A stretch of 64,000 nt of DNA from an uncultured Bacteroidota bacterium (GCA_903913315.1 CAIWKX010000121.1:11001-75000), one strand, 5' to 3'. Counted from the first letter of the stretch, positions 6,031-58,792 are shown. Notes: generated by a model not told the origin, from the sequence alone. Numbers and translations are program-made.

Positions 6031-6066
6031 AATACTATAGATGTTATTTGTTTAAAAAACTTGTGG

Positions 6067-6848: not shown

Positions 6849-6867
6849 CAAAAATTCGTTTTTTGCT

Positions 6868-39645: not shown

Positions 39646-41874
39646 ATGTCAGAAGAAATGAATGATAACCTACCAGTTAACGAAAACGCGGTAGACGGAA
39701 ACGTAAAAATGGATTCTAAAGAGATGCTTCATGCTGAAAATCAAGAAGTTGAAGCAAATACTAAAACAGTTAAACCTGTGGTAGAATTAGTGCCAGACAC
39801 TGAAGTGGAAGCACCATTAGTAGCGGAATTGGAACAAGAAAAAGTGCTAGAAGTTGAAGATTTAGTAGGAGAAGAAATTGAAGAATCTCATATTGAAACA
39901 ACCCCAGAAGAAATTGCTGAAACTAAAGAGCTTGTTGTGGAAGAAGTTCCAGAAACAGTGGAAGAAGAAATTATAGATGTACCAGTCGCAACTTCGAAAC
40001 TTGATAACAGCAACGAACACAAGAAAAAAGAAGAAAATATATCAATTGCAGAAGAAGAAAGCAACATCGCTGTCAATGCGATTGCCGATGCCAATGCGGA
40101 AGAAAGTGAAGACGAAACCATCAAAGGGCGTCATGATATCCCTTTACAAGATTATGAAGCCTTACCAATGGATAAATTGGTAGAGGAACTGGAAACACTT
40201 GTAGCTGTGGAACAAGTAATGTCGGTAAGAGAACATGTAGAAGAAATTAAAAAAGCATTTTTATCTAAATATTATCACTTTATTGATGAGAAAAAAGATG
40301 AATTTCATGCTGAAAACCCAGATACTACAGAAGACTTTCATTATAGTTTTCCTTTAAAAACTAAATTCGATACACTATACAACCAATATAGAGATAAAAA
40401 AAATACGCACTTTAAGTCGATACAAAACAACCTAAAAGCGAATTTAGAAAACAGAATGGCCATTGTCGAAGAATTGAAAAATTTGGTACACAATCCAGGT
40501 GCTAATATTGCTAATTCTTTAAAGCAACTAAATGACATTAGAGAACGTTGGAAAGTAGCAGGTCCTATTCCAAAAGACAAATACAACCACGTTTGGAATA
40601 ACTTCCATTTTCATATTGAAAACTTCTATGACTTTTTACATTTAGACAGAGAAGCACGAGATATTGAATTTAAAAACAACCTAGAGCATAAACAACGCAT
40701 TATTGCACGCGTTTCTGAATTGGTGAACGAAGCAGATATCAATAAAGCATTCCGTGAATTACAAGATTTACATAAAATCTGGAAAGAAGATATCGGTCCC
40801 GTTTCAAGAGAACACCGTGAGGAACTTTGGAAACAATTCAGTGAATTGACCAAACAAATGCACGACAAACGCGAAGCTTTTTATGAAGGTTTTAGAGCAA
40901 AGGAAACCGATAATCTTGAAAAGAAAAATGGAATTATTGCACAACTCCAAGTGTTAGCAAAAGAGAAAGTAGATTCGCACCAAGCTTGGCTAAACCAAAT
41001 TGTAAAGGTAGAAGCCTTACGCAATGAATTCTTTGCTACTGGAAAAGTGCCGAGTGAAGTAAATGAATCGACTTGGGCAACTTTTAAAGAAGCGGTTAGA
41101 AACTTTAACGTATTAAAAAACTCTTTCTATAAAGAAATTAAGAAAGATCAAAACGATAATTTAAGTAAAAAACAAGCCTTAGTTGACAAAGCAAATGAGT
41201 TAAAAGACAGCGAAGATTTTGCAGCAACAACGCAATTGATGAAACAAATTCAAGAAGAGTGGAAAGCAGTAGGTCACGTACCTAGAAAATTTTCTGACGC
41301 TCTTTGGAAAGAATTTAAAGCAGCTTGCAATCATTATTTTGAAAGACTAAAAGAAAGTAAATCAGAAGAAAATGCTGACGAAGTAGCAGCCTTTGAAAAG
41401 AAAAAAGAATACTTAGAAACATTGCGCTCTTTTGAATTAGTTGGCGATCACAAAACCGATTTAGACGCCATCAAAGTGCATATCGAAGCATGGAAATCTA
41501 TCGGTAAAGTACCTTTCAATAGAAGGCATATTGAAGGAAAATTCAATAAAATTTTGGATGCCTTATTTGAAAAATTAAGCTCCAGCAAAAAAGAAAACGA
41601 ACAATTGCGCTTCGCTAACCGACTGGACAATATCGCTGGATCAGAAGACAGTAGAAAATTAGACAACGAGAAAATTTTCATCATGCGTAAAATCGATGAA
41701 GTGCAAAATGAAATTTTCCAATTAGAAAATAATATCCAATTCTTCCAAAATACTAAAAACGCTAAAAAGGAAAATTCAATTGTAACAGAAGTCAGAAAAA
41801 CGATTGAAAGACATAAAGAAGATTTAGTGAGCTGGAAAGACAAATTAAAACAGATCCGAAATCTGAACAAATAA
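39646..41874 (+). CDS. DUF349 domain-containing protein
   Basis: Acidic N-terminal third, then repeated ~75-aa units with W..G.(V/I)P....W..F signatures (RERWKVAGPIPKDKYNHVWNNF, EEWKAVGHVPRKFSDALWKEF, and others). Confidence 0.8.
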   Translation: MSEEMNDNLPVNENAVDGNVKMDSKEMLHAENQEVEANTKTVKPVVELVPDTEVEAPLVAELEQEKVLEVEDLVGEEIEESHIETTPEEIAETKELVVEEVPETVEEEIIDVPVATSKLDNSNEHKKKEENISIAEEESNIAVNAIADANAEESEDETIKGRHDIPLQDYEALPMDKLVEELETLVAVEQVMSVREHVEEIKKAFLSKYYHFIDEKKDEFHAENPDTTEDFHYSFPLKTKFDTLYNQYRDKKNTHFKSIQNNLKANLENRMAIVEELKNLVHNPGANIANSLKQLNDIRERWKVAGPIPKDKYNHVWNNFHFHIENFYDFLHLDREARDIEFKNNLEHKQRIIARVSELVNEADINKAFRELQDLHKIWKEDIGPVSREHREELWKQFSELTKQMHDKREAFYEGFRAKETDNLEKKNGIIAQLQVLAKEKVDSHQAWLNQIVKVEALRNEFFATGKVPSEVNESTWATFKEAVRNFNVLKNSFYKEIKKDQNDNLSKKQALVDKANELKDSEDFAATTQLMKQIQEEWKAVGHVPRKFSDALWKEFKAACNHYFERLKESKSEENADEVAAFEKKKEYLETLRSFELVGDHKTDLDAIKVHIEAWKSIGKVPFNRRHIEGKFNKILDALFEKLSSSKKENEQLRFANRLDNIAGSEDSRKLDNEKIFIMRKIDEVQNEIFQLENNIQFFQNTKNAKKENSIVTEVRKTIERHKEDLVSWKDKLKQIRNLNK

Positions 41875-43345: not shown

Positions 43346-43374
43346 ACAACTCAATCAACCTAACCCCTTTTTTG

Positions 43375-43408
43375 AATTCCAACTATTTTCATAGTTGGAA
43401 TTTTTTTT
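43375..43408 (+). terminator. Rho-independent terminator of hemN
   Basis: AATTCCAACTAT / ATAGTTGGAATT 12-bp arms, a 4-nt loop and a T-run. Confidence 0.8.
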
Positions 43409-43456: not shown

Positions 43457-44026
43457 TTACAACAAAATTCTTTCTATTAGCCAATACAAAGCGACACATC
43501 CGATAAGGGAGGATATTGGATAAACAACACGCTCTTTGTACCAGCTTTTAGCTGCAAACCATTTGCTTACTAAATAGTAGGCAAAAAAAACAACCATGAT
43601 CTGCCCTAGTTCGACGCCAATATTAAAAGAAAACAAACAGCTAAAGAATAGTTTTTTAGGAATTCCTATTTCTTGTAAAGCTGAGGCGAAACCCATCCCA
43701 TGAATCAAACCAAAGACAAAAATGATTATTAAACGAAAAGGATTAACACTATTTCGCACTATGTTTTCAATAGCAGTATAAAGGATAGAAATAGCAATTA
43801 GTGGCTCGATGTAATTAGAATTTGGCAAAATCAAGCTCGATGCAGCTAATCCTAAGGATAAACTGTGTGCTATTGTAAAAACAGAGCATTGAATAATAAC
43901 TGATTTTAGTTCTGAATTTATAAAGAATAAAGTCAATATAAACAAAATATGATCAAATCCAAGTGGAATGACATGGGTAAACCCTAATTGAATATAGTGA
44001 CCAATGTTTTCTAAATAACCCATCAA
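43457..44026 (-). CDS. HupE/UreJ-family membrane protein (putative Ni/Co permease)
   Basis: 189 aa with six hydrophobic segments and the N-terminal motif GFTHVIPLGFDHILFIL. Its ATG directly abuts the stop of the upstream gene. Confidence 0.75.
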   Translation of the reverse strand: MMGYLENIGHYIQLGFTHVIPLGFDHILFILTLFFINSELKSVIIQCSVFTIAHSLSLGLAASSLILPNSNYIEPLIAISILYTAIENIVRNSVNPFRLIIIFVFGLIHGMGFASALQEIGIPKKLFFSCLFSFNIGVELGQIMVVFFAYYLVSKWFAAKSWYKERVVYPISSLIGCVALYWLIERILL

Positions 44027-45208
44027 TTATTGTTTGACAAACTTAAAAACTGTTGATGTCCCTGAAATTTTTAAGAAATAAACTCCGTTTGGTAATGCTG
44101 AAAAATCTTGTTTATCCAAATATCTACCTATATAGATTTGTTTTCCTTCTTCATCATAAAATTCATATACTTCAGAGCCTTTTGAATTTGCAATATTTAA
44201 TTTTGATTGAAACGGATTGGGAGATACTTTTATTCTATTCGTTTCATTGACCACCTCTTGATTTGCAAGGCTATTGGGAATGCCTCGGACACAAATAACA
44301 TAGTTAGTATTCGTTTTGATGTCATAAGTTGTAATTCCAAATTGGGTATTCCAATACCAAGCACTAGTTAGATTGCTGGGATTGGGTAATAAAGTTGTAG
44401 AGGACCAATAATTTTTGACTCCAATAGCACTCAAGTATGCTGTGTTAACAGACGGATTTACAACGCTTTCATCATTTAAAGATTGTAATTCTTTAATATT
44501 AGGTAAACGCCAATCTGACACTCCTGCTAAGGTCAACCCTTCAGCATAACTAAGAGCTTGTTCCCATGTAAGCGGTGTAAGAGTGGGTACTTTTTGCCAG
44601 ACTAATTGGGTGAGATTGTCAGAAATAGTTCCATCACCATTATCGGTATAATGATTAGCTAAAATAATTGGAACATTGACATCCCTAACCGCTCTCACAT
44701 GATAACTTTTATTCCCGCCAGCACTAAGGGTTTCCGATTTTGGTTTGTTACCTATACCGCCACCTGCATTAGTGCACCATACTTTTGTATTATCATTAAC
44801 TTGAAAAGTATTCGTCCACCAATAATCCGCTCCGCTCGAAGGAAAATAAGTAGTATTCAGAGCCGGATTGTTTCGTTGTAAGTTTAAAATACTAAAAGAT
44901 TCCAATGGAGTTGGCAATCGCCAATCAGAATAACCTCCAAGCGTCAATGTACTACAATAAGTAGAAGCATTTTCAATAGTCATTTCGCCACCATCAACTT
45001 GTTGCCACATTAACCCAGTGACCATATCCGTAATGGTGCCATTTCCATTATCAGTAAAGGAGGGTATATTGATCGAATAATCATTATCTTCTCCAACAGT
45101 TGCAGTATAACTCGTCGTTTGCCCCGTATCAGGTAACAATCGGATAGATTTAGTGACACTTTGCCCAAATGCAATGGATGTAATAAATAGTAATAAAAAA
45201 TTTCTCAT
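44027..45208 (-). CDS. Secreted protein with two DUF1566 (Lcl C-terminal-like) domains and a T9SS sorting domain
   Basis: Repeated GYSDWRLPT / GVSDWRLPNIKEL signatures. C-terminal VSPNPFQSKLNI...GVYFLKI tail. Confidence 0.7.
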   Translation of the reverse strand: MRNFLLLFITSIAFGQSVTKSIRLLPDTGQTTSYTATVGEDNDYSINIPSFTDNGNGTITDMVTGLMWQQVDGGEMTIENASTYCSTLTLGGYSDWRLPTPLESFSILNLQRNNPALNTTYFPSSGADYWWTNTFQVNDNTKVWCTNAGGGIGNKPKSETLSAGGNKSYHVRAVRDVNVPIILANHYTDNGDGTISDNLTQLVWQKVPTLTPLTWEQALSYAEGLTLAGVSDWRLPNIKELQSLNDESVVNPSVNTAYLSAIGVKNYWSSTTLLPNPSNLTSAWYWNTQFGITTYDIKTNTNYVICVRGIPNSLANQEVVNETNRIKVSPNPFQSKLNIANSKGSEVYEFYDEEGKQIYIGRYLDKQDFSALPNGVYFLKISGTSTVFKFVKQ

Positions 45209-45216
45209 ACAATTAG

Positions 45217-46824
45217 TTATTCAACCATTAGTTTTTTGGTCACCTCCACGTTATTTGTAAATTGAATTTTTACAAAATAGGTCCCTGAAGCAAGATTTTT
45301 AATATCAATTGGAGATTTAAAAGATTCTGTTTTAGAAATTAAAATCCCTTTAATACTGAAGAGGCTAATATCTTGCACATCATTTTCCAATAGGTCTTTT
45401 CCTAAATGAATTTGCAACGAATCTTTTGCAGGATTTGGATAGACTTGCACCTCGGAATCCAACAAAAAAACAGCAGTAGACAAAGGCACAGTACATTGCG
45501 AAAAACCATTATAATTAGTAGTTGTTGTGCCACTTGGGGTAACATAATTGAAAGTATATGTGGTACCACTCCAACTAAAATTAGTAGCATAACCAGGGGT
45601 CCCATTTAATGAATAAGATACATTATAACCATTAGCATTGGAATTTGGCACACATGAAGTTATCAAAGCACCACTCAAAGGGGTCCAATTTTCAGTGCGT
45701 ACCGGATGGGCAGAAGCTTGAGGAATCAATTGATAAGTAGCATCTTCAGTAACTTGTCCAACAAAATTTCCAATCATATAAGGGGCGATAGCAGTACCAT
45801 GATAGTGATAAACACCATTCGTTCCATAATGACCATGATTAGCATCCAAAGCAAGCATTGGACTTCCATCAGGTTCAACACTTCCATAAACAGCATACCC
45901 ATCCAATCCAAAAGCACAAGGTAAATCGGTGGTAGTCTGACCTAAAGTATACAAATGCAGTGGAGCAATATGATAATGATAATCGTCTCCTCGTCCACAA
46001 TGACCTCCATAATTATCCAATTGCCCATCTAAATACGAGTCAACACCTGTATTCGTGTGATAATTAAAAATAGGCACTCCATTAGCAGCAATAGCGATTG
46101 CGCCACGTGTGAAGTGTACATTATCAATCACTATTGGAGTGGCTGCAACCACAGGATTCAATGGAATACTCCAATGATTTGTTCCTATATAACATTGCGG
46201 ATTTGGCACTTGTTGCTGCCAACCATGATTGGAAATACCAACCATCATCGTGTGATTAGGAATTCCTTTACTTTCTACATAAAAATAAGTAGCATCCCAA
46301 GAGGTATGTACATTAGGTACAAATGGAGTGAAAGCCGAATTAACAAAAGTAGGATCGGTTATTGTCACTATTTTTTTTCCAAAACTAAAAAGCGTTACCG
46401 AAAGACCTACAATTACAATTGGAATAACATATTTTCTTTTTCTTTTATCTGTTGCTTTGAATAAAAAATAAGCAAAACCAATTAGAAATAGTACAATCAT
46501 TATGATTTTCCCATAAAATTTATTTGGAATTTCATTTGAAGTTTTCGCTATACTATTGGTATTAATAGCTTTAATTTTTATTTCTTTTTGTGCTACATAA
46601 TCTTGATCTGCTTTTGAAAGTGCGTCCCAAGGGTAGCTTTTCAATACATTTTGTCCATCTTCAATATATACTTTACCCTCTTTAACCATAGAGAATGAAC
46701 CATCTACAAACAGATGTTCTTTTTGAATATTCCAATGTCTTAAAACCTGATTTTGATAGTTTATAGTATGTGCTGAAGCAGCTAAACTAATCATGTAAAA
46801 AATGACTACAATTGCTTTTTTCAT
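45217..46824 (-). CDS. YHYH-domain protein with N-terminal SHD1-like module, two internal hydrophobic helices and a T9SS sorting domain
   Basis: GGHCGRGDDYHYHIAP, GLDGYAVYG and GVYHYHG motifs. C-terminal VYPNPAKDSLQI...GTYFVKI tail. Confidence 0.7.
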   Translation of the reverse strand: MKKAIVVIFYMISLAASAHTINYQNQVLRHWNIQKEHLFVDGSFSMVKEGKVYIEDGQNVLKSYPWDALSKADQDYVAQKEIKIKAINTNSIAKTSNEIPNKFYGKIIMIVLFLIGFAYFLFKATDKRKRKYVIPIVIVGLSVTLFSFGKKIVTITDPTFVNSAFTPFVPNVHTSWDATYFYVESKGIPNHTMMVGISNHGWQQQVPNPQCYIGTNHWSIPLNPVVAATPIVIDNVHFTRGAIAIAANGVPIFNYHTNTGVDSYLDGQLDNYGGHCGRGDDYHYHIAPLHLYTLGQTTTDLPCAFGLDGYAVYGSVEPDGSPMLALDANHGHYGTNGVYHYHGTAIAPYMIGNFVGQVTEDATYQLIPQASAHPVRTENWTPLSGALITSCVPNSNANGYNVSYSLNGTPGYATNFSWSGTTYTFNYVTPSGTTTTNYNGFSQCTVPLSTAVFLLDSEVQVYPNPAKDSLQIHLGKDLLENDVQDISLFSIKGILISKTESFKSPIDIKNLASGTYFVKIQFTNNVEVTKKLMVE

Positions 46825-46842
46825 GATTTTTAATGTATTAAG

Positions 46843-48579
46843 TTATTTTTTTACTACTATTTTCCCAGTACCAATAGCCCCATTTTCTCCAATTATTTTG
46901 TAAATATAAGTACCATTTGATACATCCTCTCCTGAATTACCCTTTCCATCCCAAATTACTTGAAATTTTCCTTCATTAACATAAGTATCAGTAACTAATT
47001 TTTTGACTAACTGACCTAATTCATTATAAATAAAAATAGAAATAGAAGCTCCAGTAAGCAAAGAAAATTCAATTTTTGAAGCAGTAGTGAGTGGATTAGG
47101 ATATACTATTTCATCCGCATAATTGGCATTCCAAATCACAGGTGAATTGGCACTTAAAGTATAACAATTAGATAAACCTATAGTATAAGTAGCCGATACA
47201 TCTTTGTTATGACGAGTTCCATTCTCATTAGCAGGAAGATAGGCTCTTACGTAATCAACTTGTATTTGCGTCGCACTAACGGTTACCCTTAAATGTCCTG
47301 AATTAGCAAGAATTTGCCCTGCTAAATAGCCATAAGTGGCAGCTTGTGATGGATAATTAAAGTTAGGCAAACTTGGTTGTGGAGTTTCTTGATACACTAA
47401 ACAATCTTTGTCTTGTTTGTCAAAGAAATGATCATGACCATGAAAGAAAATAGTGACCTGATTTTCAGTTAATAAATCCTTTATTGGTTTATACCATCCA
47501 GGTCTATTGGTTGCAAATCCAGAAGTAGTTCCATCAGAATTCATACCGCCCCATTCATATTTATCGGCATATTCGATACCTCCTCTACCTTCTGCATCGC
47601 CTCCTATTATTTGATGGGAAAAAATAAACTTGAACTTTGCAGAACTACTCTCCAATGTAGTTCTTAGCCAATTGTATTGAGTTAAGCCCAGTGACCAATT
47701 CCAACCTGTATTTGCATTTGGTTTAGGATTGGTATACCAAAAGGGGTCAATGACAACAAATAAAGCATCTCCCCATGTCCAAGAATAGTAAGCTTTTCGC
47801 TGTCCAGAAGTATTATTCGTACCAATAAAGTTTTGAATTGTTGAATCTCCAGAATAAAAATTATCCGGTCCAGGGTTTAAAAAATATTTTTGCCTTTCTT
47901 GTGTATCCCATACAGCAACATTATTGGCAGTACCATCCAAATACCAACCTGCTTCACCTTCATGATTCCCTAAAGCGATATACAAAGGAACAGAATGACA
48001 AACAGTTTCATAATAAGAACGTAATAAATTACAGCGATAGGGAATAGTATCGTGCGGAACGGTATTGGAAGTTAAATTAATCAATTTATCTGTCATTAAA
48101 AAATCGCCTAAATCAATCATAAAATCGGGATTGTCTTCTAACTGATTTTGCAAACAACGTTGATATAAGGCAGTATCCGATGAAGCATCAAGATGAGGAT
48201 CCGCTTGAACAACAAAAGTATATCCACTCCCAATTTGTCGTTGCGTATGAAAAGTATGCTCCGTACGTGTTGTAAAATTAGTATCTCCAGGATTTCTATA
48301 CAAGACAACATAATAATATTTAGTATCGGGTTGCAATCCACTAATTACAATTTCTGCAGGGTCATTGGCAGCAAAAGATTGCCAACTCGTTTGTCCTATA
48401 TAATTAGCGCTTGCCGTTCCAAATTGAACAGCAACCTCTGCTGGAGTAGAAAAAAACATTTTAAGCGTAATGCTCGTATCTGTTGGTTTTCCTAAAATTT
48501 CTTGACGACTTATAGTTTGTGAATGAATACTACAATTAACTATTAGTAGAAATACTACGGTACATAAATATTTTCTCAT
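46843..48579 (-). CDS. Secreted calcineurin-like metallophosphoesterase (purple-acid-phosphatase-like N-terminal domain) with T9SS sorting domain
   Basis: Motifs VQADPHLD, DLGDF, LGNHEGE, FSHQ and FHGHDH. C-terminal VYPNPLTTASKI...GTYIYKI tail. Confidence 0.75.
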   Translation of the reverse strand: MRKYLCTVVFLLIVNCSIHSQTISRQEILGKPTDTSITLKMFFSTPAEVAVQFGTASANYIGQTSWQSFAANDPAEIVISGLQPDTKYYYVVLYRNPGDTNFTTRTEHTFHTQRQIGSGYTFVVQADPHLDASSDTALYQRCLQNQLEDNPDFMIDLGDFLMTDKLINLTSNTVPHDTIPYRCNLLRSYYETVCHSVPLYIALGNHEGEAGWYLDGTANNVAVWDTQERQKYFLNPGPDNFYSGDSTIQNFIGTNNTSGQRKAYYSWTWGDALFVVIDPFWYTNPKPNANTGWNWSLGLTQYNWLRTTLESSSAKFKFIFSHQIIGGDAEGRGGIEYADKYEWGGMNSDGTTSGFATNRPGWYKPIKDLLTENQVTIFFHGHDHFFDKQDKDCLVYQETPQPSLPNFNYPSQAATYGYLAGQILANSGHLRVTVSATQIQVDYVRAYLPANENGTRHNKDVSATYTIGLSNCYTLSANSPVIWNANYADEIVYPNPLTTASKIEFSLLTGASISIFIYNELGQLVKKLVTDTYVNEGKFQVIWDGKGNSGEDVSNGTYIYKIIGENGAIGTGKIVVKK

Positions 48580-48585
48580 TTTCTA

Positions 48586-50283
48586 TCAATGTTTTATAAT
48601 AATTTTTTTAGTTAAATCTTTAATTCCATCAATTTTTAAAAAATAAATACCATTAGGAATTGAATGGGTATCTAATTCATTTGTTTCAAATGTAGTAATA
48701 GTTTGTCCTAGAACATTGATCAATTGATACTGATGACTTAAAGAATTATCATCAAAAGAAATATAAAGTTTATCACTTGAAGGATTAGGATATAGTAATA
48801 CTTTATGGTTAGGACTAACTATCTCATTAGTAGTTAAAGAACAAGAACCAACAGAATATGTATATCCAATTTCACCATTGGTATGACCAGTAGAACCAGT
48901 TGTTCCTGGAATATATGACTTGACGTAACTCACTGTCACACAATTATTAGACACATCCACTTTGAGGTGACCCGTTCCATCCAAAATAACATCTGTGTAA
49001 GCACTTGCATTTGCTGTATATCCTTTAACATAAGTAAGATCAGCGGCCATAGGCACTTCTTGATACACGATATTATTCAATACTTCTTTCGCAAATAAAT
49101 GATCGTGTCCTTGAAAAAAGATATCTACTCCAGTATCTATAAATACTTGATGAATAGGTTTTCCCCACCCCGGTCTATATTGATCAAATTTATATTGTGT
49201 CCCATCGATACCACCCCATTCAAAACCTGTGGCAACGGCTGAACCACCGCGACCTTGACCTCTATTGTGATGAGCAAAAACAAATTTATGTGTCGCTGTA
49301 CTATTCTCTAATACACTACGCATCCATAAATATTGTGATTGACCCAAAGTCCAATCCCAGTTAGTGGGCTTAGAACCGTCGGCTGGAGTGGCACCTGGAA
49401 ATATCTCAGTCCTATAAACATCCAATACTACAAATAAGGCATCCCCCCAGGTCCAAGCATAGTAATTTTCAGGAGTATCAATTCCGAAATTTTCAACAGT
49501 AGTATTACCACTGTAAAAACTATTAGGAAAAGGATTAGGATAATAATATTTTCTCCATTGTGTACCCCATACACCAATGCCATTCGGAGCAGCTGGTAAA
49601 TTATTAGTTGTGGTAGTATAAACCCCATTAACATTCAAATAATAATCATTTTCACCTTCATGATTACCTAAACAAATATAAAAAGGAATCGAATTGGTTA
49701 CAGCACCTAGAAACTGCCGATAATATTTATGTTTAGCATCCATATCGGCACTTGTCGTCGTCGTCGGAGTGTGGTCATCACCAAAAATATCTCCAAGTGA
49801 TAGCATAAAATCAGGGTTTTCAGCGGCTTCATTGGCTAAAGTTACTTGGTACATTCCAGGATTTCCATAATCATACAAATGTTCATCAGATTCGACAGTA
49901 AAAGTAAAAGGATTTCCTGCTGCCCGCTGTGTGTGAAATTTATATTCTGTTGTTGCAGTATAGCTTACAGCACCAACTAACTTATATTGCAATCGGTAAT
50001 AGTATTGTGTGTTTAATGTTAAACCAGTCAAATCAATTTCATCTGGAACATTTATAACATTAGTATAAACAATTGAGGTACTAGTATAAACACCACTTTG
50101 AGTACCATATTCCAAATAATATTGCATATTTTGATCAAATAAGATACTAGCGGTTATTGAAGTAGCTGTAGGTCTACCCAAAACGATAGATTGTTGTTGC
50201 GCAACACCCTTTATTCCTGAACATAAAAACAGCAAAAAAAGCAGGTAATTTTTTATTGTTACAATTAAATTTTTCTTTTTCAT
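48586..50283 (-). CDS. Secreted calcineurin-like metallophosphoesterase, tandem paralog, with T9SS sorting domain
   Basis: Motifs VESDEHLYD, SLGDIF, LGNHEGE, FAHH and FQGHDH. Shares YY(A/S)WTWGDALFVV with the downstream paralog. C-terminal LYPNPSSDKLYI...GIYFLKI tail. Confidence 0.75.
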   Translation of the reverse strand: MKKKNLIVTIKNYLLFLLFLCSGIKGVAQQQSIVLGRPTATSITASILFDQNMQYYLEYGTQSGVYTSTSIVYTNVINVPDEIDLTGLTLNTQYYYRLQYKLVGAVSYTATTEYKFHTQRAAGNPFTFTVESDEHLYDYGNPGMYQVTLANEAAENPDFMLSLGDIFGDDHTPTTTTSADMDAKHKYYRQFLGAVTNSIPFYICLGNHEGENDYYLNVNGVYTTTTNNLPAAPNGIGVWGTQWRKYYYPNPFPNSFYSGNTTVENFGIDTPENYYAWTWGDALFVVLDVYRTEIFPGATPADGSKPTNWDWTLGQSQYLWMRSVLENSTATHKFVFAHHNRGQGRGGSAVATGFEWGGIDGTQYKFDQYRPGWGKPIHQVFIDTGVDIFFQGHDHLFAKEVLNNIVYQEVPMAADLTYVKGYTANASAYTDVILDGTGHLKVDVSNNCVTVSYVKSYIPGTTGSTGHTNGEIGYTYSVGSCSLTTNEIVSPNHKVLLYPNPSSDKLYISFDDNSLSHQYQLINVLGQTITTFETNELDTHSIPNGIYFLKIDGIKDLTKKIIIKH

Positions 50284-50299
50284 AGTTATTTAGAGTTGG

Positions 50300-50797
50300 T
50301 TATCTTCTGGTGGGCTGATTGTCGGGTCTAAAATAATCCCTAATCTCTTTGACCAAAACTTCAAATTTTTCCTGTTGTTCTGGGGTACAAACCAATTTCA
50401 ATTCTTTGGCTTGACGATAACGAAGCAGTTCCATTTCATATTCAAAATTGGCAGTTTGTCTTGCAAGACCGATTATTTTATGTTCATCAGTGTCTTTATT
50501 AAACATGGCCGCATTCATCGCATCTTTATTATCCTTAATCTTTTGTTTCAGTACAATTTCTTTACGGTAATAATCTTCTCTGATAGTACTGAATTGTTGT
50601 GCTTGCTTTTCATCCAATTGCAATTCGCGCTTTAAAATACCCGATAGATCTTTATAGGCTTCATTTTTTGGAAATAATAACGGTTTATGATGAGGTCTTA
50701 ATTCTTTCCAAACAAAAAAACTAATCAATCCTATATTGAGAAGAACTAAAACAATAACGGCACGTGCTAAATATTTTTGCTGTCTGAAAATATCCAT
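50300..50797 (-). CDS. Membrane-anchored Spy/CpxP/CnrX-like periplasmic sensor
   Basis: One N-terminal TM segment (AVIVLVLLNIGLISFFVW) followed by a charged helical region with an LxxxQ motif (LQLDEKQAQQF). Same position as the 5231..5734 protein. Confidence 0.5.
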   Translation of the reverse strand: MDIFRQQKYLARAVIVLVLLNIGLISFFVWKELRPHHKPLLFPKNEAYKDLSGILKRELQLDEKQAQQFSTIREDYYRKEIVLKQKIKDNKDAMNAAMFNKDTDEHKIIGLARQTANFEYEMELLRYRQAKELKLVCTPEQQEKFEVLVKEIRDYFRPDNQPTRR

Positions 50798-50804
50798 TGG
50801 TACA

Positions 50805-51095
50805 TTAGATTGAAGAAATTAATAATTCATTAGAAATAACTTCTAAATTAGTGGTTCTAGTGGTCGTTGGTTTTGACTCATTCAATAATGAAAAAACTAT
50901 CAATCCGCAATTTATCAACACAATACAAACTAAAATAAAATTGTATTTACTAATAAAAGTAGTCTTTATTGAGGCATGCATTTGCAATTTCATTTGCAAC
51001 TCATAATCCCAATCCGAAGAGGGATAAATGTTTTCTAATGACTCAAATTCTTGAAGCTTTTCTATAACTTTTTCGTTTAGTGTATTTGGTTTCAT
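50805..51095 (-). CDS. Putative small single-TM anti-sigma factor
   Basis: 96 aa with one hydrophobic segment (FILVCIVLINCGLIVFSLL). Starts 49 bp after the ECF sigma gene. Confidence 0.4.
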   Translation of the reverse strand: MKPNTLNEKVIEKLQEFESLENIYPSSDWDYELQMKLQMHASIKTTFISKYNFILVCIVLINCGLIVFSLLNESKPTTTRTTNLEVISNELLISSI

Positions 51096-51144
51096 AAACG
51101 TGATTTTTCTATTAGACGATAATAATGTTGTGGTCTGGCACTAT

Positions 51145-51714
51145 CTAGTCATTATTTTTTAAAAGAATTACTAATTCTTGTGTTGTTTTCTTTTTAGCGC
51201 GGTAAATTAAACTTTCGACAGCTACAGTAGTAATATTCATGATTTCCGCAATTTCAGTAGTACTAAATCCATCAATTTTACTTAATGTAAAAGCTATTCT
51301 TTGATTCTCAGGTAATGTATTTAAAACGATTTCCACTTCGCGCAAGCGCTCATTTTCATGTAGTGCTGTATCTGGCATCGTTCCTCCCGAAATCCAATCA
51401 GAAAAAATATCAATATGTAATAGTTTTCCAAGGGAAGAGATTCTTTTTTTTCGATTACGATTTTTAATTTCATCAAGACATTTAGAAACCGTAATACGAT
51501 AAATCCAAGTAGATAATTTAGCATCGCCACGAAAAGAGGAAAGAGATTGATAAACGGCTACAAATACGTCTTGCGAGACGTCTTCAGCGTCTTGTTGGTG
51601 CAACAAAAAGCGATAGCAAGTAGTAATGACACTACTCCTATAGTGATGCACCAGTTGATTAAATGCGGTTTTGTCACCCAATTGAAACCTCTCCAACCAC
51701 GCTATATCTTCCAA
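51145..51714 (-). CDS. ECF-type RNA polymerase sigma-70 factor (paralog of 6067..6654)
   Basis: QDAEDVSQDVFVAV...LSTWIYRITVSKCLDEIK and LPENQRIAFTLSKIDGFSTTEIAEIM. The only possible start is TTG 51714, with a TGA two codons upstream. Confidence 0.85.
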   Translation of the reverse strand: MEDIAWLERFQLGDKTAFNQLVHHYRSSVITTCYRFLLHQQDAEDVSQDVFVAVYQSLSSFRGDAKLSTWIYRITVSKCLDEIKNRNRKKRISSLGKLLHIDIFSDWISGGTMPDTALHENERLREVEIVLNTLPENQRIAFTLSKIDGFSTTEIAEIMNITTVAVESLIYRAKKKTTQELVILLKNND

Positions 51715-51792
51715 ATTTCAAACACTACATTACAGAATTAAACATTTACCTTTATACCTTAGACGACTTTTACTTTTGTTTCTGGCGAAGCA

Positions 51793-52072: not shown

Positions 52073-53275
52073 ATGAAAACAACGGTTGTAATTGGAGGAA
52101 GCTTTGCTGGAATGACAGCGGCTCTTGAAATCAAAAGAAAAGGGAAAGAAAATCACAAAGTAATTTTAATTGATAAATCACCTTTGTTTCTATTCATACC
52201 TTCATTAATATGGATACCTTTTGGCAGAAGAGAGATGAAAGATATTTCGTTTAGAAAAGATGCTATTTTAGCTAAAAAAGGGGTTGATTTTATAAATGCT
52301 GAAGCAATAACGGTAGATACTCAAACGCAAGTTGTAAAAACAGACAAAGGCAATTTTAACTATGACAATCTAGTTATTGCTACTGGTCCAAAAGTGAAAT
52401 ATGATATCGCTCCAGGTATAGAAGAACATGCATACTATATAGGAACTCCTAATGGGGCCATGAAAATTAGAAAAGCTTTAGAAGAATTCAAAAAAAATCC
52501 TGGACCTATTGTAATAGGAGCCACTCAAAATGCAGGTTGCATGGGTGCTGCCTATGAATTTTTATTCAATGTAGAAAAATGGTTACGGGAACAAAATATT
52601 CGTAAAAAAGTAGAATTGTATTGGATAACCCCCGAAGATTATTTAGGTCACTTCGGAATAGATGGAATGCCTTTAGGAGAAAGCATGTTCAAAGTATTTA
52701 TGAAAATGTTTCACATTCATTACCGAACTCAAGTAGGTGTAAAAGAAGTGACAGCCGATAGCGTAATTCTATCTACTGACGAGGTTTTATCTAGTAAGTT
52801 TACTATGCTGATGCCTCCATTCATTGGAGTTGATTTTGTTACAAACTCACCTTCACTTCAAGCTACAGCCAATGGTTATATTCCTGTTGGTGATGATTAC
52901 CGTCATCAAACGATTCCAAATGTTTGGGCTGCTGGTATTGCCGTGGATGTGAAATTACCATTCGTTTCAAAAAAAATTCCCTTTGCATCACCAAAAACAG
53001 GCTACCCATCCGATGAAACTGGAAAAATTGTGGCAGAAAATATAATAAGAGTTGCTAATGGTAGAACTGATTTAAAGAAAAAAGCGTGGGGGAAAATACC
53101 TGGAGTTTGTATTATGGATTGTGGCAAAAAAGAGGTTATTATTTTTTCAAATCATTTATTCAAACCTAGAATTATTGCGGTGATGATTCCGAATTTAATT
53201 TATGATTTTAGTAAAGTTTTATTAGAAAAATACTTCCTTTGGAAAACCAAACACGGATATGCTTATCTACCGTAA
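52073..53275 (+). CDS. FAD-dependent pyridine-nucleotide-disulfide oxidoreductase, sulfide:quinone oxidoreductase-like
   Basis: N-terminal Rossmann VVIGGSFAGMTAA and a second dinucleotide region IVIGATQNAGCMGAAYEF. 400 aa. Neighbours are sulfur/thiol genes. Confidence 0.65.
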   Translation: MKTTVVIGGSFAGMTAALEIKRKGKENHKVILIDKSPLFLFIPSLIWIPFGRREMKDISFRKDAILAKKGVDFINAEAITVDTQTQVVKTDKGNFNYDNLVIATGPKVKYDIAPGIEEHAYYIGTPNGAMKIRKALEEFKKNPGPIVIGATQNAGCMGAAYEFLFNVEKWLREQNIRKKVELYWITPEDYLGHFGIDGMPLGESMFKVFMKMFHIHYRTQVGVKEVTADSVILSTDEVLSSKFTMLMPPFIGVDFVTNSPSLQATANGYIPVGDDYRHQTIPNVWAAGIAVDVKLPFVSKKIPFASPKTGYPSDETGKIVAENIIRVANGRTDLKKKAWGKIPGVCIMDCGKKEVIIFSNHLFKPRIIAVMIPNLIYDFSKVLLEKYFLWKTKHGYAYLP

Positions 53276-53331: not shown

Positions 53332-53634
53332 TTATTCCGATTTTTCAATAATGACGCTAATTATTTCTTCTTTAGACAAAACACCTGATTGGCGCCATAA
53401 CTGCTTGCCCTTTTGAAATAACATCATTGTAGGCACTCCTCTCACTTGATAAACAGTAGCAATTTCTTGATTTTTATCAACGTCAATTTTGATAATTGAG
53501 ATACGTTCACCCAAACTGTCTTTGACTTGTTTTAAAACAGGACCCAGCATTTGACAAGGCCCACACCAAGTTGCATAAAAATCAATTAGAACTGGTGTTT
53601 CAGAATGAATTAATTTATCAAAACTAGTATTCAT
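53332..53634 (-). CDS. trxA: Thioredoxin
   Basis: 100 aa with the WCGPC active site. Confidence 0.9.
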   Translation of the reverse strand: MNTSFDKLIHSETPVLIDFYATWCGPCQMLGPVLKQVKDSLGERISIIKIDVDKNQEIATVYQVRGVPTMMLFQKGKQLWRQSGVLSKEEIISVIIEKSE

Positions 53635-53725
53635 GATGCGTTGTTTAAATAATTAGACGAACAAATTTACACTATTAAATTTTAAAAAAAAGTGATATTT
53701 GTTACATAAATCCTACCCATTATAA

Positions 53726-53911
53726 CTACTCTTTTACTCCTAATTTAGTCAAGATGTCGTCCATTAAACACCATTTGGTGATAGAAGATTGTAATAAATT
53801 AGTACCTACAAAAGCAGTGAACCAAAGCCAATTCTGACTTACATAAATAGAAAGTACTAAACTGATTAGTATAAAACTTCCGGCAATAGCATGAATAATT
53901 CTTGTTTTCAT
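53726..53911 (-). CDS. DUF2892 (YgaP-like) small membrane protein
   Basis: 61 aa with two hydrophobic helices and the conserved FVGTNLLQSSITKWC segment. Confidence 0.65.
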   Translation of the reverse strand: MKTRIIHAIAGSFILISLVLSIYVSQNWLWFTAFVGTNLLQSSITKWCLMDDILTKLGVKE

Positions 53912-53923
53912 ATTTAGGTTATA

Positions 53924-54229
53924 TTAATTTGATTTCTCAATATTTAAAACGGCAACGTGAATGTGTGATAAGGTTTCTTGCTTAGTGTTAAAAGAGCTTA
54001 CATCTGCACAAACCTTATCTACATTTTCTTTTTGAACAAAGGCATAAAATAGTATGGATTCGTTTTCATTCATTTCTGTTCCAAACCAATTTGTTCCTAA
54101 TGCATCTTCAGAGGCATTTCTGTAACCAACTACTTCTCTATAAGAATAAGTTTTTACATTAGCTTTTTTAAGAATTTGTTTCACTTCTTTTCCAAATTCC
54201 GCAATTGCAGTGATTAATAAAAGTTTCAT
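53924..54229 (-). CDS. Small cytoplasmic hypothetical protein, possibly P-II/DUF3240-like
   Basis: 101 aa with a beta-alpha-beta-like N-terminus (MKLLLITAIAEFGKEVKQILKK). It sits immediately downstream of the RND permease. The fold assignment is a guess. Confidence 0.25.
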   Translation of the reverse strand: MKLLLITAIAEFGKEVKQILKKANVKTYSYREVVGYRNASEDALGTNWFGTEMNENESILFYAFVQKENVDKVCADVSSFNTKQETLSHIHVAVLNIEKSN

Positions 54230-54260
54230 TTTTATATTTTTTTAAAAGGTTCTCGATACA

Positions 54261-54280
54261 ATCCCGATTGTCATCGGGAT
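54261..54280 (-). other. GC-rich intercistronic hairpin between the RND permease and the small downstream gene
   Basis: Perfect arms ATCCCGAT / ATCGGGAT with loop TGTC. No T-run on either strand. Confidence 0.6.
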
Positions 54281-54295
54281 CGAACTGACGTTAAG

Positions 54296-57200
54296 TTATT
54301 CTATTTTGTCCTCCTCAATTACTTCTGTTGGTTTTTCCCATTTTTTTCTTTCGGTTACATAATAGATTATGGGTACTACTAACAAAGTAAGTATTGTGGA
54401 GACAATAGCTCCAAATACTAATGATATGGCTAATCCTTGAAAGATGGGATCAAATAATATTATGGATGCCCCAATTACAACAGCTCCGGTGGTTAACAAA
54501 ATTGGTGTCGTTCTAACTGCTCCTGCTTCAATAATAGCTTGTTTTAAAGGAATTCCTTCGTTCAAACGGATTTCAATAAAGTCGATAAGTAAAACGGAGT
54601 TCCTGACCATTACTCCTGCCAAAGCAATCATTCCAATAAAAGAAGTCGCTGTAAAAAAGGCACCCAACAACCAGTGTCCAAATACAATTCCTATTAATGA
54701 TAACGGAATTGCCATCATCATCACCATTGGCGTTTTGAAGTTTTGGAACCAACCTACAATCAACATATAAATGATCACGATGACCACCATAAAAGCTACT
54801 CCTAAATCACGGAACACTTCTAATGTAATTTGCCATTCCCCATCCCATTTGACTGTAAAATTACTTTCGTCGTTTGGTTGTTCCATGTATAACTCATTCA
54901 CTTTATATCCTTTTGGTAATTGCATTTTCTGCAATTTTTCATTCATACCTAAAATAGCATATACAGGGCTTTCCAACGCTCCAGCCATATCAGCTGTTAC
55001 ATAAACTACTCTTTTTTGGTCTTTACGATAAATAGTTTTCTGTAAAGTATCTTGTACCACTTTTACCAAATCACTTACAGGAACTACATTACCTCGACTT
55101 CCTTTTATTTTTAAATTTTCAATATCTTGTAAAGTTGTTTTGTCTTTATCGTCCAACGAAAGAACAATACTCACGTTATCATTGGAATGCTCATCATATA
55201 AATTTGAAACAGGGTATTCTTTTAATAAATACGTCAAATTTCCAACTACTTGTTGTGGAGCAATTCCGTTAAGCATTGCTTTTTCCTTATCCACCACTAA
55301 TTTATATTCCGTTTGGTTATCTTCCGTCATCCAATCGACATCTACAATATCAGAAGTAGATTGCAAAATGCCTTTTACTTGATTGGCAACTTTGATTTGG
55401 TCTTTATAATTCGGACCGTAAATCTCCGCTACCAAAGTGGATAAAACTGGTGGTCCTGGTGGAACTTCAATAATTTTTACATTCGCTCCATATTTTTTAG
55501 CAATCTTTTGCACTTCTGGACGTACTTCCTTGGCAATACTGTGACTTTGCATAGCACGATCTTCTTTATGCAATAAATTCACTTGAATATCAGCCATATT
55601 ACTTCCTCCACGTAAATCATAATGTCTTACCAATCCGTTGAAGGTTATGGGTGCTGATGTACCAATATAGTTTTGATAATTTACTACTTCTGGAACAGTA
55701 GAAAGATATTGTGCTATTTCTTGAGTTACGGCTGCTGTTCGTTCTAAAGTAGTACCTTCGGGCATATCAACTACTACTTGGAATTCATTTTTGTTATCAA
55801 AAGGCAACATTTTTACTATAACTGATTTGGTAAAAAACATCATCACCGAACCAATTAATAAAAGTACCGTGATACCAACTAATACCCTCCTTTTTTTACT
55901 ACTTTCTAATAAAGGTCTTTCTAGTTTGTTGTATATTTTATATACCCAATTAGTTTCTAATCCTTGTTCTTCTTTATGTTTTTGCTCGTCTTTTTCTTGT
56001 AACAAATGATATCCCAAATAAGGTGTAACGGTCAATGCTACGAATAATGAAAGTAACATGGCTATAGAAGCACCAATAGGCATCGGACTCATATAAGGCC
56101 CCATCATTCCCGATACAAATGCCATAGGAAGTATAGCAGCAATAACGGTAAACGTGGCTAAAATTGTTGGATTTCCAACTTCGTTAATGGCATAGATTGC
56201 AGCTTGCTTGAAAGGCAGTCGTTTCATCTTGAAATGCCTATGCATATTTTCGGCAATGATTATACTATCATCAACCACAATTCCTACCACAAAAACTAAA
56301 GCAAAAAGGGTGATTCTATTTAAGGTATATCCTAATAAATAATACGCAAATAAAGTCAAGGCAAAGGTCAATGGAACAGAGAAGAATACGACTAATCCAC
56401 CACGCCATCCCATAGCTAATATTACTAAAAATGTAACAGCAATAATAGCTATGCCTAAATGCATTAATAATTCACCTACTTTATCAGAAGCTGTTTCTCC
56501 ATAATTACGAGTTACTTCAACATGAACATCATTAGTTATAATAGTTTTCTTAAGTTGCTCTATACGTTCTAATATCTTTTCAGAAATTTTCATTGCATCG
56601 GCGCCTTTGACTTTTCCGATGGAAATAGTTACAGCTGGATATTCTGATTTTGCTGTTTTAAATTTCTCATTTGCTTTGCCATATCCAAAAGACACATAAC
56701 TACTTGGTGTAGAAGGTCCGTCAGCTACTTTTGCCACTTGTTTTAAGTACACAGGCAAATTTGCATTGACACCGACAACTAAATTCTCTACATCTTCTGA
56801 CGATTTTAGAAATTGCCCCGTGGTAACTAGATATTCTTTATCATTGTTAACAAAACTACCTGATTGCGAGCTACCATTATTGGCTTGAATCATTTGCATG
56901 ATACCCAAGGCATCAACACCATTTTCAGCCATTTTATCTTTGTCTAAAACTACTTTTACTTGACGATTTCTACCACCAATCTCTCTCGTTATAGCAACAT
57001 CTTTTACTTTTTCAACTTCTGAGGTTACTTCTTCGGCTATCTGACGAATTTCAAAGTCATTCAATGTAGAACTCCATAATGTTAATCCCAACATGGGAAC
57101 ATCATCAATGGAACGGGTTTTGACCATTGGTTTATATACCCCTTGTGGAAACATATTTTCGTGTTTCGCAAGCTCATCATATAATTTTACATACGAGCGT

Positions 57201-57520
57201 TCCACATCTTGTCCTACATAAAACTGAACAATTAACATGGCTTGGCCATTCATAGCCATGCTGTGAACATGCTCTACTCCTTTAATATTAGAAATTATTT
57301 TTTCTAAGGGTTTTACCACTCGGCTTTCCACTTCTGTTGGATTAGCACCTGGATATCCCACCATAACGTCAGCCATAGGAACATTGATTTGTGGTTCTTC
57401 TTCTCTTGGAATTAAGAACGAACTGTATACACCAATTATCATCAAACCAACCATCAATAAAATGGTTAATTTAGAGTTGATGAAAAAATGGGCAATTTTA
57501 CCTGATATACCTTCTTGCAT
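54296..57520 (-). CDS. Efflux RND transporter permease (AcrB/HAE-type)
   Basis: 1074 aa with 12-TM / two-large-loop architecture and the TM4 motif VVDDSIIIAEN. Confidence 0.9.
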   Translation of the reverse strand: MQEGISGKIAHFFINSKLTILLMVGLMIIGVYSSFLIPREEEPQINVPMADVMVGYPGANPTEVESRVVKPLEKIISNIKGVEHVHSMAMNGQAMLIVQFYVGQDVERSYVKLYDELAKHENMFPQGVYKPMVKTRSIDDVPMLGLTLWSSTLNDFEIRQIAEEVTSEVEKVKDVAITREIGGRNRQVKVVLDKDKMAENGVDALGIMQMIQANNGSSQSGSFVNNDKEYLVTTGQFLKSSEDVENLVVGVNANLPVYLKQVAKVADGPSTPSSYVSFGYGKANEKFKTAKSEYPAVTISIGKVKGADAMKISEKILERIEQLKKTIITNDVHVEVTRNYGETASDKVGELLMHLGIAIIAVTFLVILAMGWRGGLVVFFSVPLTFALTLFAYYLLGYTLNRITLFALVFVVGIVVDDSIIIAENMHRHFKMKRLPFKQAAIYAINEVGNPTILATFTVIAAILPMAFVSGMMGPYMSPMPIGASIAMLLSLFVALTVTPYLGYHLLQEKDEQKHKEEQGLETNWVYKIYNKLERPLLESSKKRRVLVGITVLLLIGSVMMFFTKSVIVKMLPFDNKNEFQVVVDMPEGTTLERTAAVTQEIAQYLSTVPEVVNYQNYIGTSAPITFNGLVRHYDLRGGSNMADIQVNLLHKEDRAMQSHSIAKEVRPEVQKIAKKYGANVKIIEVPPGPPVLSTLVAEIYGPNYKDQIKVANQVKGILQSTSDIVDVDWMTEDNQTEYKLVVDKEKAMLNGIAPQQVVGNLTYLLKEYPVSNLYDEHSNDNVSIVLSLDDKDKTTLQDIENLKIKGSRGNVVPVSDLVKVVQDTLQKTIYRKDQKRVVYVTADMAGALESPVYAILGMNEKLQKMQLPKGYKVNELYMEQPNDESNFTVKWDGEWQITLEVFRDLGVAFMVVIVIIYMLIVGWFQNFKTPMVMMMAIPLSLIGIVFGHWLLGAFFTATSFIGMIALAGVMVRNSVLLIDFIEIRLNEGIPLKQAIIEAGAVRTTPILLTTGAVVIGASIILFDPIFQGLAISLVFGAIVSTILTLLVVPIIYYVTERKKWEKPTEVIEEDKIE

Positions 57521-57592
57521 AATTTTTTGTTTAAAGTTTGAGGTTTAAAAGTTTAAAGTTGTTTTACAACCTAGCCTGAAATCTGCGCCTAT

Positions 57593-58678: not shown

Positions 58679-58694
58679 GATTTATTTATTTTTT

Positions 58695-58759: not shown

Positions 58760-58792
58760 CTTTTTGATGTTTTAATATGTATTGTTAAATGA

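Follow-up and report, generated by a model that had tools for sequence, protein, structure and literature searches.

The 64,000-nucleotide stretch of an uncultured Bacteroidota bacterium analysed here (GCA_903913315.1, CAIWKX010000121.1:11001-75000; hereafter the window, to which all positions without another label refer) carries on its minus strand, at 43457-51714, eight genes for an extracytoplasmic function (ECF) sigma factor, two membrane-anchored partner proteins, four proteins with type IX secretion system (T9SS) sorting tails and a predicted metal permease. An open reading frame (ORF) scan recovered all eight ORFs at the coordinates given by a reading of the same DNA from its sequence alone (the sequence-only reading), and the Pfam and NCBIfam profile scans of the window proteins confirmed the domain identities which that reading had assigned. 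The first gene, SIG (51145-51714, minus strand like the seven that follow), encodes an ECF sigma factor of 189 amino acids (aa) with matches to Sigma70_r2 (60.4 bits), Sigma70_r4_2 (57.7 bits) and TIGR02937 (95.8 bits, cutoff 42.9). Downstream are ASF (50805-51095; 96 aa), a putative minimal anti-sigma factor judged by position, size and topology, and MRES (50300-50797; 165 aa), an N-terminally anchored, periplasmic Spy/CpxP/ZraP-like protein with Metal_resist and LTXXQ matches. There follow MPE1 (48586-50283; 565 aa), a predicted secreted metallophosphoesterase composed of an N-terminal beta-sandwich, a Metallophos domain and a Por_Secre_tail, and its paralog MPE2 (46843-48579; 578 aa; Metallophos and TIGR04183). 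The last three genes encode the YHYH protein (45217-46824; 535 aa; PF14240 YHYH domain and a Por tail at 53 bits), LCL (44027-45208; 393 aa), which has two C-type-lectin-like Lcl_C domains (formerly DUF1566) and a T9SS tail, and HUPE (43457-44026; 188 or 189 aa; PF13795), a predicted inner-membrane metal permease of the HupE_UreJ_2 type.

Going from SIG to HUPE, the intergenic gaps computed from these coordinates are 49, 7, 16, 6, 18, 8 and 0 bp, the same close packing as first described. One detail of that description needs correction: the codon abutting the TAA at 44026/44027 is TTG and not ATG, the ATG being the next codon and the start chosen by gene callers, which gives HUPE 188 aa. The terminator scan found no convincing internal terminator within the operon. 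Between the convergent genes HUPE and hemN it found a hairpin with a 13-bp stem (43374-43403, strand unspecified), whose T tail is on the plus strand and whose stem on the minus strand is followed by TTCAAAAAA; from its location this hairpin is the likely end of the transcription unit of the minus-strand operon.

The upstream regions of the sigma genes in three Flavobacterium loci have CAGAA-N14-CGTCT(A/T)A in common, and from this starting observation an ECF-type consensus promoter of canonical ECF geometry was obtained, TGCCAG-N16-CGTC(T/A)AA. A promoter matrix trained only on the sites of other species was scored at 127,928 positions of the window and gave exactly two sites, P2 (score 29.9) and P1 (28.4), the third-best position reaching 8.1. 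P1 (51754-51790, minus strand; core CAGA-N15-CGTC at 51762-51784) is 5' of SIG, with its core about 47 nt from the TTG start, and its position implies positive autoregulation of the sigma gene. P2 (51107-51143, minus strand) is located in the 49-bp gap between SIG and ASF, with its core 19 nt 5' of the ASF ATG; it is predicted to drive the seven downstream genes, and its presence explains why the operon has a single large gap. Outside the cluster the matrix scan detected no site of this type in the 64 kb, the nearby genes of a resistance-nodulation-division (RND) pump included. A parallel scan with the sigma-70 consensus was discarded, being at chance level (38 found, 41.6 expected) and using a consensus that does not apply to promoters of Bacteroidota.

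Scanning one genome per species with an alignment of MPE homologs gave relatives in at least 580 species representatives, spanning Flavobacteriales, Saprospiraceae, Chitinophagales, Cytophagales, Kapaibacteria/Ignavibacteria and Chlorobiota. Eighty loci were fetched (numbered with the prefix L below), the eight proteins of the window were mapped onto them and all their ORFs were clustered; counts refer to those 38 loci in which the MPE block is flanked by at least 4 kb upstream and 6 kb downstream. The two MPE genes are adjacent in 33 of the 38 loci. YHYH is present in 25, Lcl_C in 26 and both together in 21, while HupE occurs in 12 and never without YHYH, and SIG with MRES in 8. The families that recur are in essence those of the window itself, no other family recurring to a comparable extent. 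Because the same set recurs in dozens of species, the gene arrangement is not due to chance, and as the flanking genes differ even between close relatives (the window and L007), the cluster behaves as a discrete module. The neighbourhood is conserved across Bacteroidota, Ignavibacteriota/Kapaibacteria and Chlorobiota, with HupE variably present, and this conservation and the common promoter motif back the single operon that had been proposed. The sigma gene and its two partners, referred to below as the trio, head the operon in L007 and L009, lie between MPE2 and YHYH in L064 and L066, and are divergent from the MPE pair in L047.

The promoter motif follows the cluster through these rearrangements. 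It is found 5' of the sigma gene in L007 and L009, while the position 5' of the anti-sigma gene is the most constant one, with sites there in about 14 loci from different orders. It also precedes MPE1 (L047, L075, L090), YHYH (L064, L066, L011, L027 and the later-fetched L087 and L088), Lcl_C-type genes (L056, L066) and a multicopper oxidase gene (L009, L090), and in L087 it stands on either side of an intergenic region between divergent genes. In four out-of-sample loci, fetched later via MRES, the top-scoring positions were 5' of ASF in all four, and with these included the motif is at conserved positions in more than 20 loci. The raw number of CAGA-N15-CGTC matches is near chance (28, against 23.2 in shuffles) and shows no overall excess, so that the signal is carried only by where the matches fall: 18-19 of the 28 are intergenic, correctly oriented and 10-140 nt 5' of cluster genes. 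Most lineages have the motif only before anti-sigma, sensor and cargo genes; in Flavobacterium it precedes the sigma gene too. On comparative grounds, these placements argue strongly that the structural genes form the sigma factor's regulon.

Orthologs of SIG with 45-68% identity are present in 13 related loci. In the related loci compared, the ASF gene is invariably found between the sigma and the Metal_resist genes. Its product has a cytoplasmic N-terminal domain of about 50 aa, one transmembrane helix and a short periplasmic tail, and the alignment shows an invariant W29, an invariant N62 inside the helix and a conserved C-terminal periplasmic IS.ELLIN motif. ASF matches no Pfam family (the only match at E<=0.1 is a sub-threshold DUF4271) and nothing in NCBIfam; from its position, size and topology we infer that it is an anti-sigma factor.

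MRES passes the thresholds of Metal_resist (PF13801; 34.6 bits, gathering threshold 29.2), marginally, and of LTXXQ (25.3 bits, gathering threshold 24.3). When its profile was searched against solved structures, Spy (E=0.011), ZraP (E=0.015) and CpxP (E=1.7) were matched over nearly the full length, weakly but consistently. Two LTXXQ-like motifs (LQLDEKQ and CTPEQQ) are present, together with the conserved motifs RDSMN, NEYxMELLR and EIRDYFRPDN. Proteins of the Spy/CpxP/ZraP group are chaperones which also feed back on envelope signalling systems. MRES differs from them in having its own conserved motifs, in being anchored by an N-terminal transmembrane helix instead of soluble, and in being paired with an ECF sigma and anti-sigma factor rather than with a two-component system. 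It belongs to a compact subfamily of 383 proteins (E<=1e-5), against 4,911 in the MPE family.

In all four contexts reached through MRES homologs on long contigs, genes for a sigma factor, a protein of about 100 aa and MRES stand in this order, with part of the same cargo set after them. The cargo is YHYH, Lcl_C and HupE in L087, with one MPE on the opposite strand; YHYH and PEBP only in L088; MPE, Lcl_C, an FGE-sulfatase domain protein and two arylsulfotransferase (ASST)-like proteins in L089; and two MPEs, YHYH, a protein of family c5 (described below) and Lcl_C in L090. The regulator is therefore tied to the cargo set as a whole and not to one enzyme, and the trio, as far as gene order tells, looks dedicated to the MPE/YHYH/Lcl_C cargo.

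Two further observations concern proteins similar to those of the trio. Three flavobacterial loci without sigma and anti-sigma genes encode, 3' of the Lcl_C gene, small Spy-like proteins of 132-149 aa (L013:16207-16656, L015:16183-16620 and L016:16116-16514). They suggest a chaperone role independent of signalling, although their Metal_resist/LTXXQ matches are sub-threshold and nothing further is based on them. L090 contains in addition, in the region 109-8975, a paralogous trio (sigma factor, 91-aa and 152-aa proteins), whose sigma factor is 41% identical and whose third protein is matched by hhalign at 96%. In this region it heads genes for MbnP, a MauG-like protein, a multicopper oxidase, a sulfatase, a short YHYH protein and two thioredoxin-like proteins, and the related promoter-like sites have the -10 element TCGTCAAA in common and a different -35 (GAAGGA).

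The trio had been likened to CnrH-CnrY-CnrX of Cupriavidus, and the layout of a sigma factor, a small single-pass protein and an anchored periplasmic helical protein does stand. As in CnrYXH of Cupriavidus metallidurans (ECF291) and in the ECF281 and ECF290 groups, the genes adjoining the sigma gene encode a very small single-pass partner and an anchored Metal_resist-family protein. The three-part topology and the protein sizes match Cnr (ASF, single-pass, has 96 aa and CnrY 95 aa), PF13801 is the Pfam family containing CnrX, and HupE/UreJ proteins are Ni/Co permeases in characterised cases. According to the ECF re-classification (PMC7826278), a PF13801 gene stands at position +2 in ECF281 and ECF290, two groups related to CnrH.

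What failed are the specifics of Ni/Co sensing. CnrX, whose sequence was checked against the PDB, is a strong member of PF13801 (91.2 bits against the 34.6 of MRES), yet hhalign of the MRES family with CnrX gave a probability of 0.65% over 43 columns, and the search of solved structures with the MRES profile, which found Spy and ZraP, did not return CnrX. Of the CnrX metal site, taken as His42, His46, Glu63, His119 and Met123, the first three residues align to Ser, Lys and an invariant Arg of the MRES family, and no His is invariant in the 13-sequence alignment of this family. ASF has no match to CnrY in Pfam or NCBIfam, nor a zinc-finger or RskA signature. The gene order also differs, with the sigma gene first in the window, a sigma-dependent promoter motif lies between the sigma and anti-sigma genes, and the target is an operon of T9SS cargo and not an RND efflux pump. 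No heavy-metal efflux target is linked to the cluster, Rfam detected no riboswitch in the window, of the NiCo or B12 type or any other, and urease or hydrogenase genes are absent from the recurrent neighbours in the clustered ORFs of the fetched loci. The triggering of the system by Ni/Co, as previously put forward, is thus not sustained, and MRES is best described, from these alignments, as belonging to the Spy/CpxP/ZraP/CnrX clan, anchored in the membrane and lacking the Ni/Co site of CnrX.

MPE1 and MPE2 are paralogs with 35% identity (E=4e-106) and match Metallophos (PF00149; gathering threshold 21.5) with 31.8 and 36.7 bits, the latter for MPE2. The five metal-site motifs reported for both enzymes (classes DxH, GD, GNH[DE], H and GHxH) are indeed present in each and fall in invariant columns of a 48-sequence alignment including the two paralogs, the metal-site residues being D133/H135, D165, N207/H208, H338 and H393/H395. 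A sequence search of MPE1, YHYH and MRES against solved structures returned only T9SS tails or nothing. The AlphaFold2 model of MPE1 (mean predicted local distance difference test score, pLDDT, 82.3) had as its top Foldseek matches PhoD of Bacillus subtilis (2yeq, 1.7e-19) and wheat purple acid phytase (2.7e-17), followed by Rv0805 and GpdQ, which match over the catalytic domain alone. PhoD and the plant purple acid phosphatases and phytases have, like MPE1, an N-terminal beta-sandwich and then a metallophosphoesterase domain, and are themselves secreted phosphate-scavenging enzymes; in the model, this combination in MPE1 is the architecture of secreted phosphate-scavenging phosphatases. The MPEs differ from these enzymes in sequence (identity about 15%), in having a classical DxH motif I and a motif II of the form GDxxGDDH without Tyr, and in their predicted export by a T9SS C-terminal tail and not by Tat or the eukaryotic secretory pathway. 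By these sequence criteria they are a distinct subfamily.

Above-cutoff TIGR04183 (T9SS type A) tails are present in MPE1, MPE2, YHYH and LCL (38.6, 30.5, 40.3 and 31.4 bits, cutoff 23), which bears out the four Por/T9SS sorting domains of the sequence-only reading; in MPE2 the Pfam tail model is sub-cutoff (23.3, cutoff 27) and TIGR04183 is above it. All four proteins have hydrophobic N-termini as read from their sequences, and tails and N-termini together support the predicted export through T9SS.

The YHYH and DUF1566 domains had been regarded as functionally uncharacterised, which is partly outdated. YHYH is a predicted Zn-dependent hydrolase with three His and one Asp, and YHYH domains, which occur in fusions with phage tail and baseplate proteins, were predicted as envelope-breaching hydrolases (PMC7824862). 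Lcl_C is a C-type-lectin-like adhesin domain which in Legionella Lcl binds sulphated glycosaminoglycans (PMC11162425). The YHYH protein of the window matches PF14240 with 39.3 bits (gathering threshold 25) over profile positions 1-110 of 193 only; short YHYH paralogs in related loci match over the full length (192 bits). Two GH...YHYH motifs are invariant in 40 homologs, in which the architecture is conserved: signal peptide, a beta domain of about 70 aa, a transmembrane hairpin, the double GH..YHYH domain, a beta domain and the T9SS tail. The N-terminal module with its internal hairpin (46345-46824, minus strand; residues 1-160) had been overlooked before. Its predicted mature N-terminus is the invariant His19, its beta domain (pLDDT 81-90) has a weak SHD1 match, and the AlphaFold2 helices 101-124 and 127-151 flank a DRKKxKY loop. 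Signal-peptidase-like cleavage after the second helix (LFSFG|KK) is a possibility from the local sequence. The core of the protein was modelled with pLDDT below 50 throughout and no fold is claimed for it. An exhaustive search for the N-terminal module gave 77 cluster representatives, in which every long match also has YHYH; apparently stand-alone modules end in junk sequence and were rejected as probably truncated or frameshifted fragments.

LCL matches Lcl_C with 174 bits in two copies, and its NCBIfam matches include Lsa25 and FimD. HUPE scores 148.6 bits with HupE_UreJ_2 (PF13795) and 32 bits with PF04955, and H17, D24, H25, C46, H53, E73, N87, H108, E138 and Q141 are invariant in 17 orthologs, the invariant His, Asp and Glu residues being embedded in the membrane. 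Two natural fusions join genes that are separate in the window and thereby point to functional coupling, namely P0367 (844 aa), with YHYH and two Lcl_C domains, and P0417 (1443 aa), with YHYH, PEBP, a PhoD/purple-acid-like MPE and a T9SS tail.

The genes found beside the core in other species include those for a T9SS-tailed sulfatase, two thioredoxin-like (TlpA-like) proteins and PEBP, as well as a T9SS-tailed multicopper oxidase (4 of 38 loci). A three-gene block accompanies the MPE genes in L070 (13548-19296) and also in L037, L051, L061, L066 and L089; it encodes a fusion of two Lcl_C domains with FGE-sulfatase and two ASST-like T9SS proteins, and in L089 two neighbouring genes encode Lcl_C and FGE-sulfatase separately. 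In the Kapaibacteria-type loci L065 (1977-3842) and L081, a T9SS-tailed PhoX and a MauG-like di-haem peroxidase adjoin the MPE pair, and MauG-like genes occur with TonB receptors in Kapaibacteria loci. Two flavobacterial loci, L017 (7381-9483) and L010, have FeoB directly upstream of the two MPE genes. From these accessory genes two themes emerge, phosphate and sulphate ester hydrolysis on anionic substrates, and copper and iron handling. A further family, c5, is found in about 15 loci (for instance L030:1563-2804) and is absent from the window; its T9SS-tailed proteins of about 410 aa have no Pfam domain in the N-terminal 340 residues, and in many loci its gene is between YHYH and Lcl_C. In L087 (17779-20492) the cluster adjoins integrase and AAA_25 genes, and in L088 (12649-20510) RteC, TraG-type conjugative-element genes and a large restriction-modification/helicase gene, a hint that mobile elements can carry the module.

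With modest confidence we favour the view that the cluster is a sigma-controlled regulon of T9SS-exported phosphoester hydrolases, with a likely role in scavenging phosphorus from extracellular organic esters. It is carried by the gene content and its conservation, the dedicated linkage, the promoter motif and the enzyme fold; signal, substrates, metal and the role of ASF as anti-sigma factor are inferred and would fit in as follows. In the off state ASF would hold the sigma factor at the membrane, as expected from the behaviour of such families, with MRES beside it in the periplasm modulating its activity. A periplasmic cue would free the sigma factor; as candidates for it we would sooner guess at the state of nutrients or cofactors, or at the load that folding and metallation of the cargo impose, than at Ni/Co binding at a CnrX-type site. 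The freed sigma factor would read TGCCAG-N16-CGTC(T/A)AA and fire P1 and P2, the P2 transcript carrying anti-sigma factor, sensor, MPE1, MPE2, YHYH, Lcl_C and HupE as one unit. MPE1 and MPE2 may cross the inner membrane via Sec, fold and acquire their metal in the periplasm, leave by T9SS and, once extracellular, hydrolyse phosphate esters, while YHYH, as a predicted hydrolase, and the lectin-like Lcl_C protein could have these anionic substrates in common with them, acting on them or binding them. The permease of the HupE type would move a divalent metal linked to the enzyme set. The products would end up at the cell surface or in the medium, and relatives carrying sulfatases may scavenge sulphur as well.

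Related systems are known from other members of the phylum. In F. johnsoniae, phosphate depletion induces loci combining ECF sigma factors, PF00149 phosphodiesterases and T9SS-tailed proteins, and also a PhoX/MauG-like pair (PMC8115612). These PUS/PHO loci resemble the window in gene content (ECF sigma, PF00149 and T9SS tails), homology of the enzymes aside, and the PhoX and MauG-like genes of L065 and L081 mirror this pair, Fjoh_2477/2478 (PMC8115612). The PUS loci differ from the window in having FecR-like anti-sigmas and SusCD-like transporters, and none has the small transmembrane protein with a Spy-like partner, YHYH, Lcl_C or HupE. A T9SS-secreted metallophosphoesterase with phosphatase activity is reported for Riemerella (PMC10202324) and resembles the MPEs in family and mode of secretion, homology aside.

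Several findings weigh against the favoured view. The metallophosphoesterase superfamily is functionally broad, and the profiles of the families that MPE1 resembles in fold are sub-cutoff for both MPEs (PhoD 15.4 and 19.4 bits, cutoff 27; Pur_ac_phosph_N 16.9 and 22.3 bits, cutoff 30). The Tyr ligand of purple acid phosphatases is absent, motif II being GDIFGDDH in MPE1 and GDFLMTDK in MPE2. Thirty of the 38 MPE clusters have no adjacent sigma trio, so control by the sigma factor is not universal. The internal hairpin of the YHYH protein is hard to reconcile with T9SS export, the role of HUPE is unexplained, cytoplasmic import giving no obvious help to periplasmic metallation, and the hairpin 3' of HUPE has no T tail on the operon strand. 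The recurrent copper and iron neighbours (multicopper oxidase, MbnP/MauG, the FGE-like domain, FeoB) form a metal theme which the scavenging model does not explain.

This metal theme is the core of a second reading, which we consider unlikely, that the cluster is one arm of a network for extracytoplasmic metal acquisition and metalloenzyme maturation, in which the sigma factor would sense copper or iron status, the His-rich YHYH and HupE would handle the metal and Fe(III)-type phosphatases would be the clients. PhoD, PhoX and purple acid phosphatases require Fe(III), and the invariant His at the mature N-terminus of YHYH is compatible with metal handling. The neighbours favouring it are the T9SS-tailed multicopper oxidase, the TlpA-like thioredoxins, the fusion of Lcl_C with FGE-sulfatase, the FeoB genes of L010 and L017, the MauG-like genes with TonB receptors of Kapaibacteria, and the MbnP, MauG-like, multicopper oxidase, sulfatase and YHYH genes headed by the paralogous trio of L090. 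However, the window contains none of these accessory genes, only a minority of loci show the associations (4 of 38 for the multicopper oxidase), the sensor has no demonstrated metal-binding motif, and modelling of the YHYH core was not successful. A MauG-like gene beside PhoX is moreover also a feature of phosphate stress (PMC8115612).

Rather unlikely, in our estimate, is a phylum-wide design in which a minimal anti-sigma factor and an anchored Spy-like chaperone would couple a sigma factor to the folding or metallation state, or the export load, of T9SS metalloenzymes, the His-first YHYH module and HupE serving as a metal relay; if true, an ECF circuit that senses cargo would for the first time be linked to type IX secretion. 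We find it quite improbable that the system serves antagonism or surface remodelling, with secreted hydrolases attacking the envelopes of other cells or the cell's own matrix, the MPEs cleaving teichoic-acid-like or nucleic-acid phosphodiesters, YHYH acting as a cell-wall hydrolase and Lcl_C as an adhesin. Such roles would suit the phage-tail fusions of YHYH (PMC7824862), the adhesin character of Lcl_C (PMC11162425) with the Lsa25 and FimD matches of LCL, and the integrase or conjugative-element genes next to the clusters of L087 and L088, but the clustered ORFs contain no recurrent immunity-like gene, toxin domains are absent, and the accessory PhoX, sulfatase and PEBP suit nutrient scavenging better. 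Given the missing CnrX ligands and the other differences from Cnr described above, a CnrH-CnrY-CnrX-type sensor, in which MRES would bind Ni/Co and free the sigma factor while HupE imports the same metals for the secreted hydrolases, is very improbable.

Searches of the literature by Pfam accession and by the term YHYH found no paper describing this gene combination, in line with the initial impression that no function had been described for it. Every component family is already known, the layout of ECF sigma and PF13801 genes has been catalogued, and Flavobacterium has known phosphatase loci linked to sigma factors. What appears to be undescribed is the conserved cargo set, the dedicated trio, the promoter motif and its placement between the sigma and anti-sigma genes, the gene fusions and how large the MPE subfamily is. 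In lakes, soils and oceans, Bacteroidota have a major part in recycling organic phosphorus and polymers, and they export mainly through T9SS, yet little is known of the regulation of individual T9SS cargo sets. The module defined here is compact, with a sigma factor, its promoter motif, a two-protein membrane switch, and cargo built around a widespread but uncharacterised family resembling PhoD and purple acid phosphatases. Should the MPEs be phosphatases, they would fill a gap in the inventories of genes for phosphorus cycling in the environment. For the poorly understood YHYH and DUF1566/Lcl_C domains, the module provides gene context, natural fusions and a regulator.

The surroundings of the cluster in the window complete the description. 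Upstream of SIG, a type III sulfide:quinone-reductase-like flavoprotein is encoded divergently at 52073-53275 (plus strand), and beyond it, at 53332-60106 (minus strand), an RND efflux operon encodes an outer-membrane factor, an adaptor and a pump of 1074 aa, followed in the same region by genes for a 101-aa P-II-like protein, a 61-aa YgaP-like transmembrane protein and a thioredoxin. In the matrix scan, the sigma promoter motif was absent from the flavoprotein gene and from the genes of the RND region. The pump was considered as a Cnr-like target and rejected, since it scores 456 bits with the multidrug RND model versus 237 with CusA/CzcA and has no sigma-type promoter. On the other side of the cluster, upstream of hemN at 39646-41874 (plus strand), a protein of 742 aa is encoded whose N-terminal third is highly acidic and rich in Glu and whose remainder is helical and repetitive.

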